Below the pieces are notes generated by a model that had not been told where the DNA came from, ran no database searches, and saw only the letters and a list, made by a program, of their open reading frames with translations. Shown piece after piece: positions 7,120-63,647 of a stretch of DNA of 64,000 nucleotides. Source of the DNA: Octopus vulgaris (Eukaryota); assembly GCA_951406725.2 (NCBI GenBank), contig OX597819.1, forward strand, positions 83,142,001-83,206,000. The letters are read 5' to 3'. Made by a program: the position numbers and the translations under genes. The number at the start of each line of letters is the position of its first letter. Position 1 is the stretch's first letter.

Positions 7120-8164
7120 TTACTTATATTATATTAAACTTTTTAATATTTTTGATAGCTTAAAAAAATTAATAAATTAAAAACTTAATAACTTAAAAGA
7201 TTAAAAAATTAAAAATTAAAAGTTTAAAAATTTATAAATTTTAAATTTTAAAGATATAAAAATTTAAATTTTAAATTTTATATATTTTGTATATTATATT
7301 AATTATATTTATTTTTATGTTTTGGTTTATGTCTTTCACTGTTTGATTTGCCTAATAGTGGTTTTATCTCTAGTTTAATTTATATATATATATATATATA
7401 TATATATATATATATATATGTGTGTGTGTGTGTGTGTGTGTGTGTGTGTATATATATATATAAACATATATATATTTGTATATATACGCGTATATACACA
7501 CATACACACTTACACGCGCGCGTGTGAGTGTGTGTGTATATATATATACATATATATATATATATTACTGCATATATTTCTCGTCTTCTCTCCAGGGTGT
7601 AGCGCTTCAGTTCTGGTACACTCTCCCTGTAACTCAACTACTTCATCGAGTTAGTCTTCTTTGTGTAGGGGCGCTGGATTGCCTCTAGTTCTGCCACCAA
7701 CTTGACGCTCTGCAGCGACCACTGTTTAGAGCACTAATCTAGACGACTGAGAACAAAAGAGAGCTTTTGAAAAAAGTGTAAATTTTCAGCTGACAAAATA
7801 TTTTGTTAAAATGGCACAAGTTGTATAATGGTATTTTGTAAAGCAGTGCTACAATTTATTTTTAATAATGTTGTATACTTTGATATAAATATCAGGACCA
7901 ACTGTACGAAGTAGCTATTGAAATGTATATATTTCTATTATTGGATTACATTCAACATCTATTTTACCAACAACTGAAGCCGCCAAGATAGTGATCTGTT
8001 CGTTATCGAAATGAACTGTATCTATGCTCGTGTTTACTACAAACTCATTTCTATTAAGTAAAAAGTGACTAGCGATTAAAAGCTGATCAGAAATATAGTT
8101 TATTAACCGACAGTTCCTTAATTGTTTACTTTTGGGTAAGAAATTTATTTTTATTACTTTACAG

Positions 8165-8253
8165 ACGACTATCATATGCCGTTGAGTGTTCGAAGAATAC
8201 TGTCTGTCCTACATCACAGAAAACCCATGATCTATACGCTTTTTATGGATGTG
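8165..8253 (+). CDS. Gene A internal exon (phase 2 to 1); RLSYAVECSKNTVCPTSQKTHDLYAFYGC
   Basis: Bounded by ctttacag and GTAGGT. Length 89 nt. Aligns codon for codon with paralogous exon 62828-62916 (-). Confidence 0.85.
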
Positions 8254-8429
8254 GTAGGTATTTCCTCTTTCAATGATATTTTTAATAACTCCGGGAAAAT
8301 ATTGTTTTTAAAAAATGTTAATATACAAGGCGGTGCCCCAGCATGACCGCAGTTAAATGGCTGAAACAAGTAAAAGATAAATAATAAGAATATTCCTACA
8401 AAAAAATAATAAATTCAAATTCATATGAG

Positions 8430-8810
8430 TTATTAATATTGACTTCAAATCTTGGCACAAGGCCAGCAATTTTCGGGTGAAGGGGTAAGTCGATTGCCTC
8501 GACCTCATGTACTCAACTGAAACTTAATTGATTGACTCCGAAAGGATGACAAGTAAAGTCGTACTAGGTGATAAAGTCGAACTCAGGAGGTGAAGACGGA
8601 CAAAATACCGCAAAATATTTTGCCCGACCTGCTAACGACTGTCAGTTACTGTTATCAGAAATATAAGGTGACGAGCTGGAATAATCGTTAGCACGCCGGA
8701 CAAAATGTTCTGAATTCAAATTCCGCCAATGTCAACTTTGCTTTACATCCTTACGGAATCAATAAATTAAATGCCAGTTGGGCACTGAGGATGATTACAC
8801 TAAAATCTGA
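8430..8810. mobile_element. Two head-to-head fragments of SINE family 2
   Basis: Homologous to the gcgagctggcagaatcgttagcac..caaaatg repeat also seen at about 18590, 27790, 45915-46115, 56330-56465 and 62638. Confidence 0.6.
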
Positions 8811-9540
8811 AACCAATATTATCAAGAAATATAGCTTTAGCTATACTTAAGAGCAGTTATATGTAGCTTTTTGTCAAAATTCATCAGAAATGCATTTTCA
8901 ACAAATTCTTACTGTGCTTCTATGACTGAAGTACATTCATAAAAACCTAATAATGCCATTATGAAATACATTTTAAATAATTTCTTTTTTTTTTTTTTTG
9001 CATTTAAACATAAATTATATAAATTTTCTGAAGCTTCACTGACTTTTTACCAAAAGTGACTTTAATGTTATGAGTGTTTAATGGCCAAGATAGATTCAGC
9101 TTCTTATTTATTTTTCCGGTCCAAGAAGCTTTGGGTTGCACTTCTATAAATGGAGTGCATTTTCGGAAAGCCTTCCAGGATAGCGTACACGTGGACTCAA
9201 ACACCCCACATACAATATACCTTTATATATTCATCGTTGTTTTCACGTCTACTTATCCATGGATCAGAGTTTACTGAAGCAAATTTTCTACACCTGGATG
9301 CCATTCCTGTCACAACCCCTCATCTGTTTCCAAGCAGGTGGCCAGACATGCTTTTGCAGATGATTGGAAATAACATTAATTTACAACAATCTTATGATTT
9401 CAAGAGAAGAAAACACAAATATATATATGTATATATATATATATATATATATGTATAAGGGTGGAAAGGAACACACGAGTTGATATATATGAAAAAACAA
9501 GTCAAAAATAGAAAATGCTAAGATAATTTTATAGTGAATC

Positions 9541-9584
9541 TTTCAGTACCGGTTTCGGTCATTTTGAGACCTTTTCAACTGTAA
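9541..9584 (-). ncRNA. Hammerhead ribozyme, U3-A8 core variant
   Basis: Mirror copy of 9815-9858. Confidence 0.7.
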
Positions 9585-60529: not shown

Positions 60530-61915
60530 ATTACTAGACTATGATTTTAAGTTTATTCCATCTAAGAAATTAGGACATGTTAATTGTTTATCAAGATTGA
60601 TTTCGAAAAATACTGGACCGTTTGAAGATACTATGATTGCTGCGTTGCGAGCAGGAACTGGGATTTAAAATGATATTCCATGTTCCTGACTGCATGTTGA
60701 TCACGCACGTCCACTTAAGCGTTCATATTATCTTGTGGTGGACAGTTTTTCAAAGTGGCCTGAAGTGCATAAGTGTAAAAAGCTTAAATTTGTGATTACA
60801 GTATTTTTTTTTACACGAATTGTTCACCAGATATGGTATTTTTGATAGCATTGGGTCTGATAATAGAGCTTAGTTTACTTCAGTCGAGTTCAAAAAGTTT
60901 TGTAAAAAGTTCGTTATCGAACATGTGACCACTCCGCCGTATCATTCTATGTCGAAATGTAAGGTGGAGTGTTTTGTTGATACTTTTAAGAGGGGTTTTA
61001 AAAAGGCGAACAACGAAGTAATGGATGACTTAACACTTCAACAATTTCTAAGAGTGTACCGAGAAACATCTGATCCGAATACACCATCTGGAATGTCACC
61101 AGCGGAATTAAGGTTTGCTAGAAAGATCAGATCTGCTTTTGATAATTCGATACCGAGTAATAAAAGAAAAAATGGCGAACAACAAATATACTTCAAAATT
61201 CTTCAAGATAGGTTACAAAGTTTGTTTGTTTTTTTAATTGTACAGATATGGTAAAGAAAGTTGGGAGAACGGAGTAATTATTGAACAAATTGGAAAAGTA
61301 TTATTCCTGGTAAAAGGATCTTTTCACTTTGACCAGCAGATTTTAAAAATAATTTCTTTGTAACTAAACACTTTTAAACTTCGTATACTGGTAGAATGTT
61401 TCACATAAAACATCTTTTTCTCTTGGCGTTCTTGAGAAAATTAAGTAGTTTGTAAGCTATTTCTTGTTTAATTTCTCGTATTTCGGCAATTTCAACCAAT
61501 CAATGACGTCTATTAACAAACTACATAATTTTCTCAAGAACGCCAAGAGAAAAAGATGTTTTATGTGAAACATTCTACCAGTATACGAAGTTTAAAAGTG
61601 TTTAGTTACAAAGAAATTATTTTTAAAATCTGCCGGTCAAAGTGAAAAGATCCCTGGTAAAAAGAAAAAAATTTCGAACATAAAAGACATATAAGCCAAC
61701 TTAAAAAGATGTACGGAAGAAACAGTCACGAAAGACGAAATTCCCATGGAAGTTTTGTACGCCCATGTTTGAAGGTACCAACATCCCCAAAAATTGAAGC
61801 TACACGTTCAAGTAACAGAAAAAGGAAAAGAACGGAAATACTAGAATTAAACTCTAAGCGTAAGAGATATTAAAACTCTGGACGGAGTTTAAATTTCAGA
61901 AAGGGGAGAAGTTAT
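60530..61915 (+). mobile_element. Gypsy-like LTR retrotransposon integrase relic with polypurine tract
   Basis: VVDSFSKWPEV, GSDN and TTPPYHSMS..VECFVDTFKR..MSPAEL motifs. PPT-like aaaggggagaag at about 61901. Confidence 0.75.
61316..61653. mobile_element. MITE with TIRs of about 135 bp and 9-bp TSD (CTGGTAAAA)
   Basis: ggatcttttcactttgacc...ggtcaaagtgaaaagatcc. CTGGTAAAA at 61307-61315 and 61654-61662. Confidence 0.92.
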
Positions 61916-62337
61916 GGGAGGCTAATTTTCAAAAAAGGCGAGAGGTTGTGGAAAGATCCTGACCACCCCCACGTGACTAACAGTGGACTGACGTATTTCA
62001 ATGAAATAAACAGTTGGCAGTTACCAAACAGTTAACAGCGTTGATCGTTCGTATTGGCGTAATATGGAGTACGTTCTGCATGAGCATATTAATCCTGCGA
62101 AAGGTTATTCTAGATAACCATATCCAAATGTTCATTTGGCTAATACTATTCTTACACCTTTGTTCACATGCCAACGTCATCATAACATTATTGGCGACAA
62201 GATATTCAAACCCACGACATAACATATATATATACGCACACACACACACACACACACACACACACACATATATATATATACGCACACACACACACACATA
62301 TGTATACATTCATACAATATGTGTGTGTTGGGGGGAG

Positions 62338-62705
62338 GGCGCAGGTGTGGTTGTGTGATAAGAAGTTTGCTTCCCAGCCACAAGATTCCGCATTCAGTCC
62401 CACTGCATAGCAATTCTGCTATAACCTCAGGTGGACCAAAGACTTGGTGAATTTGGTAGAAAGAAGTCGGTCGTGTGTTTCTGTGTAAATACCAAGCTTT
62501 AAAGATAAGTAGTGAGGTCGATTCGTTCGACTCACATTCTTGAAGCCATTGCTCCAGAATAACCGCAGTCCAATAAATGGAACTAGTAAAAGAAAGATAA
62601 AGGATACATATATTATTTTAATATACATGTGTCTTAGGGCGGCGAGCTGACAGAATCGTTGCAACACTGGGCAAAATGCTTAGCGGATATCGTCCGTCTT
62701 CACTT
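62338..62705 (+). mobile_element. SINE family 1 (diverged) followed by a SINE family 2 head
   Basis: ggcgcaggtgtggttgtgtg..cattcagtcccactgc, then ggcggcgagctgacagaatcgtt. Confidence 0.7.
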
Positions 62706-62827
62706 ATTTGGATTTTATTTATTTCTAGGGACGGGGAAAATAGAATTCAATATTAAATATGTTTACAATTATTAAACAATATTTTCGTGGAGATATAAAA
62801 GCTATCAATGAAAAAGGTAATACTTAC

Positions 62828-62916
62828 CACACTCATAAAGAGCGTATGAATCACGAATAATCTGTGGTATAGGACATTTAGCATCTTCCTTACATTTAGA
62901 CATAAATGATATTGTT
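62828..62916 (-). CDS. Gene B internal exon (phase 2 to 1); TISFMSKCKEDAKCPIPQIIRDSYALYEC
   Basis: Bounded on the minus strand by ttgcag and GTAAGT. Length 89 nt. Paralog of 8165-8253. The gene presumably continues beyond 64000. Confidence 0.85.
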
Positions 62917-63647
62917 CTGCAATATAGTAAATCTAAATATGTTAGCCAAAAGTAAACAATTATTGCAACTATATTTTTGACCAGCTTTTAATACATTAAT
63001 ATATCGCCAGTCACTTTTTACTTAATAGAAATGAATTTGTAGTAAATATGAATATAGAAACAGTTGATAATGAAATACATCTTGAATGTAATCCAACAAT
63101 AAAAATATGCACATTTTAATGCGTACTTGATATGTACTGATATTTATATCAAAGCATTTACACTTGTTAATAGTAAATTGTAGTAGCACTTTACGAAGTA
63201 CCATTATCCAACTCGTGCAATTTTAACAAAATATTTTGTCAGCTGAGAATTTACTTTATTTTTTAAAAACTCTATAAATCAGTTAATTAAACAGCTCTGC
63301 TCTTCTCAACTATTCTCTACGTTAATTTGAATCCAAATGATTAAGTATAAAATATGTCAAAGTGTCCATATTCAATATCCATTTAATCTATTTCCTATAG
63401 CTTTACTATCTTTCACCAAACTCTCCGCAGCGCAAATACGCCTTATTATCACCATTCGTGAACTGCTCCTACTCTAAGATATTTGTAGCCAGTCATCGAA
63501 CTCCCAAAATGTTCATAGCTTTTACTGTCTACCTGCACAAATCCAGTTGGGGAAGAAGCTGACTCAATCTAGCATGATAATATTTTACTAGTAATACCTA
63601 TGGAAAAAACCCACGGATATTTTGAAATCTATGTCCCTAATTCTATC

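Follow-up and report, generated by a model that had tools for sequence, protein, structure and literature searches.

Loci that encode polymorphic recognition proteins, including the major histocompatibility complex (MHC), Alr1/Alr2 of Hydractinia, fuhc/fester of Botryllus and lysin/VERL of abalone, are known for clustered paralogs that exchange sequence and for variable ectodomains on a fixed frame with a conserved anchor. The fuhc/fester system is treated in PMC11507803 and PMC10888813. These properties, the anchor being a predicted one, recur in a cluster of three Octopus vulgaris genes (A, B and C), two of which extend into the 64,000 nt stretch analysed here (the window; contig OX597819.1, positions 83,142,001–83,206,000). 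The octopus cluster differs from these loci in that no sequence or fold relation to them was found and in being known from sequence alone. We give a probability of roughly 0.6 to the reading that the cluster is intact and encodes a predicted anchored protein of six disulfide-locked helical repeats, with a surface partly driven to change by diversifying selection, likely via a partner that varies. The trio likely represents an undescribed protein of recognition engaged in an arms race. This mode of evolution is familiar from other systems; neither the family nor its scaffold of six repeats has a name.

Two groups of described proteins were compared with the octopus family. RGM proteins and neuritin are glycosylphosphatidylinositol (GPI)-anchored and have six cysteines, and the RGM N-terminal domain binds ligands of the bone morphogenetic protein type. 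The RGM N-terminal domain (PF06535; RGMB, PDB 6z3m_C) and neuritin (PF15056) share with the octopus family, as modelled, a small, all-helical, cysteine-rich extracellular domain, but the octopus proteins have six tandem repeats rather than one and evolve rapidly. The GDPH cleavage motif is absent from the octopus family sequences, whereas it is present in the genome's own RGM-like frame on contig C2. No match to the RGM_N, RGM_C or neuritin (PF15056) profiles was found in the family proteins, and in the reverse test a profile of the octopus repeats did not score the C2 frame above shuffled sequences. The GDNF/GAS1 domain (PF02351, as in GFR-alpha) contains about ten cysteines, and proteins of this type resemble the octopus family in having a predicted signal peptide, tandem helical cysteine-rich repeats and a hydrophobic C-terminal tail. 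The GDNF/GAS1 label that UniRef gives to two homologs (P0003 and P0004) fails by profile and by cysteine pattern. None of seven family proteins matched PF02351 at E-values up to 10, and the sole match in the genome was a GDNF/GAS1-domain frame on contig C15. That frame shows a CxC motif, which no gene A repeat has, and the octopus repeats hold only four to six cysteines. The GDNF/GAS1 fold was not among the structural matches listed, where a missing entry excludes nothing.

Gene models and predicted protein

The window consists of animal DNA that is rich in AT and in repeats. Once it was masked, its + strand showed four blocks that matched four on the − strand in mirror order, each containing one exon with AG/GT ends. 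Gene models were built with 400 kb of flanking DNA and a database protein of 382 aa as guide, and the third paralog (C) was located by a genome search. All three models have 14 exons (A, + strand, 382 aa; B and C, − strand, 384 aa each) and 32 cysteines, with no internal stops and 42 of 42 exons open. In window-extended coordinates, to which 83,142,000 is added for the position on the contig (C6 of the genome), the coding spans are −38456 to 29095 (A), 101358 to 44944 (B) and 203049 to 136133 (C). A and B are arranged tail to tail. The window contains six A exons and four B exons, exons 1–10 of B being past its end. Model A is identical to database protein P0002, named a hypothetical Octopus vulgaris protein by its source. 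An earlier 10-exon model was dropped because, against the 382 aa of protein P0001, it missed four exons per gene; its numbers are kept only for single exons and for the exons of an earlier reading of the window (the original prediction), which had covered four of the 14 exons and two of the three genes. A pseudogene or assembly duplicate was ruled out by the open exons and by flanks that are only ~78% alike. No fourth copy was found in the genome with three protein queries, for which only the best candidates were scored.

In the first RNA-type run, a single contig of 1881 nt covers the whole of exon b3, and the 14 bins (of 30) without depth are all intronic, which fits a spliced transcript if the guessed RNA status of the run is correct. 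The stretch 29007–29700 was present in 20 of 24 listed runs, whose RNA status is likewise a guess, and none of the runs listed for it is recorded as RNA.

The protein consists of a hydrophobic N-terminus (predicted signal peptide), six cysteine-rich repeats, a run of small residues and a hydrophobic tail. Each repeat of 51–61 residues is made up of one phase 1-to-2 exon and one phase 2-to-1 exon, designated a and b with the repeat number. The repeats of gene A contain 4, 6, 6, 4, 6 and 6 cysteines with a smallest within-repeat spacing of 5, and 31 of the 32 cysteine columns are invariant across nine sequences. A profile built from the other repeats recognised repeats 2, 4 and 6 (0 of 500 shuffles as high) and, weakly, repeats 3 and 5 (2 and 12 of 500); repeat 1 was not recognised (52 of 500). 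GPI-anchored proteins combine a signal peptide with small omega residues and a terminal hydrophobic stretch, and have no cytoplasmic tail. In A, B and C hydropathy is 2.4–2.6 at both ends and G-A-A precedes the tail stretch, but about eight residues with a conserved Y-I-S-L/F follow it. This end (29072–29095 in A, 44944–44967 in B) reads Y-I-S-L, or Y-I-S-F in Argonauta, and is kept in all eight proteins that have a tail. The protein is predicted to be membrane-anchored on the cell surface, and its tail may act as a GPI signal or, alternatively, as a short membrane anchor whose conserved end is of the form Y-x-x-hydrophobic. For a transmembrane anchor, this end would fit a tyrosine-based sorting motif. 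The original prediction had listed immune, allorecognition, gamete-recognition, chemosensory and toxin genes as possibilities; the predicted anchor argues against a secreted toxin.

The structure model of repeats 5–6 is all helical (mean predicted local distance difference test score, pLDDT, 79). The top structural match to repeat 6 among 48,161 chains was the RGMB N-domain (Z 5.3, root-mean-square deviation 2.4, 52 aligned residues), a low Z that is within 1 of unrelated helical bundles. An Atlas structure list of 10 rows included neuritin (template modelling (TM) score 0.41, row 9) and RGM_N (TM 0.40), both under threshold. Foldseek gave no match at E 0.001, a second search was headed by TPR-type rows, and the full-length model (pLDDT 45) and the search made with it were uninformative. 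The modelled fold resembles the RGM N-domain or neuritin loosely, and this is a lead rather than membership. Pfam gave no matches for P0001 and P0002 and only weak unrelated matches for the other proteins (E 0.015 or worse), and a PDB sequence search gave none. Unnamed clusters at 0.83–0.85 in an Atlas feature search, two of them mostly Mollusca, are also treated as a lead only.

Homologs were found only among octopods, with A and B in O. sinensis, all three genes in O. bimaculoides, and also in Argonauta. They form three ortholog pairs or trios in a tree (bootstrap 99–100 each). Three near-length homologs were present among 469 candidates and three in 1.84 billion representatives; there was no homolog among shorter proteins, and every named homolog was from Octopus or Argonauta. 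The searches gave no squid match, by which absence is not proven.

Divergence, selection and exchange between copies

The original prediction had proposed possible diversifying selection on the grounds that the ectodomains of paired exons diverge strongly while flanking introns and untranslated regions (UTRs) stay alignable. The matched exons are real, as the A/B pairs have AG acceptors, GT donors and open frames. Recounting from the translations gave the same figures of 35 of 83 whole-codon ectodomain residues identical, including nine of nine cysteines, and 18 of 28 in the tail (36 of 85 and 19 of 29 with boundary codons included). The three regions reported to align by eye are indeed alignable, in opposite orientation (blastn E-values of 3e-57, 5e-55 and 4e-75 for the enclosing blocks). 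With exons included, identity was 80.0% over 496 aligned columns, 77.1% over 484 and 78.3% over 503. Real A/B flanks kept 70–540 columns per exon compared with an average of 44 in a shuffled-flank control (30 trials). For these three exons, nucleotide identity is 65.5% (255 nt) versus 76.5% in the flanks (1137 aligned nt), and codon positions 1, 2 and 3 are 63.5, 64.7 and 68.2% identical. Over the three paralogs, ectodomain exons are 71–72% identical versus 78–80% in aligned flanks (A/B 72% versus 78%), where the flank identity is an upper bound because free gap placement inflates it, the shuffled control still reaching 74% where columns were kept. The outer part of the protein has evolved no more slowly than the non-coding DNA next to it. 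Flank divergence between paralogs is ~0.24–0.27 substitutions per site, over which all 42 exons have kept an open frame, and the proteins are identical at 205–207 of 381 residues in pairwise comparisons.

Site models were fitted to 381 codons of the three paralogs. The one-ratio mean of non-synonymous to synonymous rates (dN/dS) is 0.98–1.16, with lower values for the tail (0.32–0.70) and exon b1 (0.36–0.45). With fixed cysteines and a mean near 1, either other sites are above 1 or nearly all others are free, and the codon models prefer the former. The likelihood ratio test (LRT) of M1a against M2a gave 66.2 and 64.6 in one analysis and, in another, 67.2 in plain form, 28.0 with multi-base changes, 16.5 with rate variation and 14.0 with both (p 0.0009). 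A strict set of 314 codons off indels, without exon a5 and the signal exon, gave 11.2 (p 0.004), and separate branch lengths for three segments gave 14.4 (p 0.00075). Between 17 and 36% of sites were placed at dN/dS 5–15. Over the whole genes a positively selected class thus found support under every correction applied, but the three exons from which the selection reading had been drawn are weak evidence by themselves. Their LRT is 9.9, or 6.0 (p 0.05) with multi-base changes, which is within the range of an intron control, all six pairwise dN/dS intervals include 1, and in these exons the gene A protein is identical to its O. sinensis ortholog at 85 of 85 residues. The opposite pattern, a dN/dS well below 1 and exons more alike than introns, was absent.

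Comparison with orthologs places recent change in repeats 2–5, mostly beyond the window. Between gene A and its O. sinensis ortholog, 23 of 382 residues have changed, which needs at least 26 base changes. All but one of the 23 (22) are encoded by exons a2–a5 and none is past residue 262 (170 of 192 identical in a2–a5 versus 189 of 190 elsewhere). For B, 57 of 379 residues differ, 47 of them in a2–a5 (142 of 189 identical versus 180 of 190 elsewhere). A and its O. bimaculoides ortholog are identical at 212 of 336 ectodomain residues and 28 of 29 in the tail. PMC10700109 puts the O. vulgaris/O. sinensis split at ~2.5 million years ago and O. vulgaris heterozygosity at 1.22%. If the latter is taken as the baseline, gene A as a whole shows about a twofold excess; it is larger in the middle repeats and would be smaller if neutral divergence is higher.

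Four coded runs were compared with exons b3 and a4 of gene A. The a4 changes are also the bases of gene B, so for these only contigs anchored in an intron of A (one of 1410 nt; one of 173 nt, depth 3.1) count for A. All six listed exon differences (G167R, Q169R, N174Y, N197K, S199P and D205G) change the residue, in each case to that of O. sinensis, and N197K abolishes a glycosylation sequon. Contigs with unique intron show 14 differences over 3572 nt and 13 over 3236 nt (0.4%). The 1410-nt contig has at least three differences in a 64-nt exon (Fisher p 0.003), and on one contig the density of variants in the exon is about ten times that in the intron. Two b3 alleles of A, one reference-like and one O. 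sinensis-like, are present in a single run. An excess of residue-changing ectodomain differences finds support between paralogs and in the four coded runs, which are not a population sample. For the variable sites of B, one of two tests for greater variability in other copies gave p 0.02. RNA editing was ruled out as the source of the variants, as four of the six are not A-to-G and both A-to-G changes are also found in a run with intron cover. A low-depth contig (L050:3304) has two extra bases in the A-run of exon b3, probably an assembly error and possibly a null allele.

Sequence exchange between the paralogs, as in polymorphic recognition loci, has likely taken place. Informative intron sites around a4–b4 group A with B (134/71/62) and those elsewhere group B with C (259/235/347), with a chi-square of 39.5 between regions, and segment branch lengths agree with this mosaic. 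In gene B the native b4 exon (acceptor at extended coordinate 76200), which resembles B of O. sinensis and O. bimaculoides, breaks off and is directly followed by a second acceptor and a complete A-like exon (76107–76019) that is identical to A at 81 of 89 nt (91%) and to C at 72 of 89. Either acceptor preserves the frame, the first adding 31 codons (415 rather than 384 aa). The position of the A-like exon behind a truncated native copy makes it a likely gene-conversion scar, with exon 9 (b4) of gene A the likely donor. Over much of its length the A-like segment is only 85–93% identical to A, so the transfer looks older than the split from O. sinensis. In O. sinensis, however, the B protein (P0006) has both a4 and b4 complete and of native type. 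This would follow if old alleles coexist, or if that one protein model is in error.

Weighing the explanations

If diversifying selection is at work, the protein would be a surface-anchored string of helical domains with exposed residues selected to change since the bound partner changes. Purifying selection would preserve the tail, exon b1 of the first repeat and the cysteine frame. Change would be favoured at roughly one fifth to one third of sites, and the middle repeats 2–5 would form the current binding surface. Ectopic exchange between A and B, which are inverted relative to each other, may supply new combinations. Given selection, a pathogen or parasite is the leading candidate for the partner, at somewhat short of even odds; self/non-self or cell-cell matching is possible at clearly lower odds, and a gamete is a slightly weaker candidate again.

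Several points weigh against diversifying selection. The site models use only three DNA sequences and our own implementation rather than codeml, and the M0 dN/dS does not differ from 1. Model-free ectodomain dN/dS is 0.98–1.50, with an interval that excludes 1 in only one of six estimates. Intron pseudo-codons, run as a control under the plain model only, gave LRTs of 2.3, 12.7 and 3.1 over three frames, and the 12.7 (p 0.002) is a false positive near the corrected exon value of 14. The division into middle (a2–a5) and ends was drawn after the data were seen, the b3/a4 stretch was picked because the proteins differed there, and the twofold excess for A is without a synonymous baseline for the O. 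sinensis pair. By itself, six of six changes being non-synonymous has a chance probability of 0.18. There are 48 further differences beyond those listed, several contigs have a depth under 5, some a4 signal in the RNA-type runs may come from gene B, and the species of the runs are coded, which makes variation within and between species inseparable. Sites that differ among alleles of A show no significant excess of variability in the other copies (all four tests p 0.07–0.42). Of five structure models, only one was confident.

A first alternative is relaxed constraint alone: with nothing but the cysteine frame and the anchor required, as in a spacer, coat or glycan carrier, all other residues would drift neutrally. 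The mean dN/dS is indistinguishable from 1 and most bootstrap intervals span it, the site-model LRT drops from 67 to 14 with corrections against 12.7 in the intron control, and intron identity is biased upward. Such drift corresponds to M1a, however, which was rejected in eight of eight exon fits with full or strict codon sets. The divergence of exon a5 also far exceeds that of its flanks and of synonymous sites, the O. sinensis differences cluster in repeats 2–5 while the 120 C-terminal residues of A are identical, and exon variants on one contig outnumber intron variants by density, as described above. Relaxed constraint as the sole cause appears unlikely.

Long-term balancing selection on a locus for self/non-self or gamete matching, whose allele lineages predate the O. 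vulgaris/O. sinensis split, would account for B differing from O. sinensis B at 47 of 189 middle and 10 of 190 end residues, for an A-like segment in B that seems older than the split when P0006 has native-type a4 and b4, and for the two b3 alleles of A in one run. P0006 is, however, one predicted protein whose DNA was not seen and may be another recombinant or a mis-assembly, and alternative alleles of A differ little in introns (0.4%), so its lineages are shallow. We consider this explanation improbable, and put a shade lower its fullest form, an octopus histocompatibility-like locus on a new six-repeat scaffold, with alleles shuffled by gene conversion and balanced across species, by which skin, suckers, blood cells or gametes would tell self from non-self. 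Least probable is an old adaptive burst, without a continuing arms race, after a growth-factor co-receptor of the RGM or neuritin type was duplicated. The structural ranking of the RGMB N-domain for repeat 6, the presence of neuritin and RGM_N in the Atlas list and the O. bimaculoides orthologs of all three paralogs are consistent with it. The Z score is low, though, and unrelated helical bundles come within 1 of it; the repeat profile fails on the genome's own RGM frame (63 of 500 shuffles as high), and the orthologs still change fast after the duplications, which a conserved ligand would not predict.

Features of the window and significance of the cluster

Within the window, gene A (+ strand, model A) begins with exon 9 (b4, the second half of repeat 4; 676–764) and exon 10 (a5; 4333–4408), the most diverged exon among the paralogs, with 52–56% nucleotide identity versus 72–80% in its flanks. 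The next three exons each encode three cysteines and are paired with exons of gene B on the − strand: exon 11 (b5; 8165–8253) with 62828–62916, exon 12 (a6; 17759–17843), which contains a conserved N-glycosylation sequon, with 56943–57027, and exon 13 (b6; 28272–28354) with 52760–52842. The coding part of exon 14 (29007–29095) encodes the small residues and hydrophobic stretch of the predicted GPI signal or short membrane anchor, and its counterpart in B is at 44944–45032. The likely 3′ UTR of A (29096–29663) is alignable with B and C; that of B (44335–44943, − strand) aligns with A 28893–29663.

Part of the alignable flank before b6 (27947–28180 and 52950–53190) is a dispersed repeat with 39 other listed matches (72–78%). 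As it occupies the same place in A and B, it is likely older than their duplication. The gene A intron between a6 and b6 contains two frames on the − strand for reverse transcriptase of the long interspersed nuclear element type (19375–22964 and 25105–26919), the second a shorter copy that is 92–93% identical. Fragments of Mariner/Mos1-type transposase were found at 13084–13821, 34453–34926 and 37521–38186, and 32965–38305 is a patchwork of recent local duplications (92–98%). A 439-bp inverted repeat (14246–14681/15229–15667, 98.9%) and a 244-bp direct repeat (10799–11042/11268–11509, 98.4%) are each likely to be a young non-autonomous element. Between A and B, adjacent stop-to-stop frames of 426 and 408 aa (40436–42927, − strand), with no Pfam match at E 1e-5, are probably a decayed mobile element. 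The last intron of B includes a 1.1-kb degenerate TG-rich tandem array (49335–50427).

No octopus locus of this kind, nor any paper on five locus identifiers, was found in a literature search that did not extend to most subscription journals or to supplements, where the genes may appear under different identifiers. Animals rely on rapidly evolving receptors at the cell surface to deal with pathogens, to distinguish self from non-self and to pair gametes. The cluster is a concrete candidate for such a receptor, with variable surfaces on a fixed cysteine frame, residue-changing alleles in repeats 2–5 and a likely exchange scar in B. If constraint is merely relaxed, it would be an ordinary lineage-specific family. 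If alleles cross the species boundary, it would offer a direct entry to self-recognition or disease resistance in octopus.

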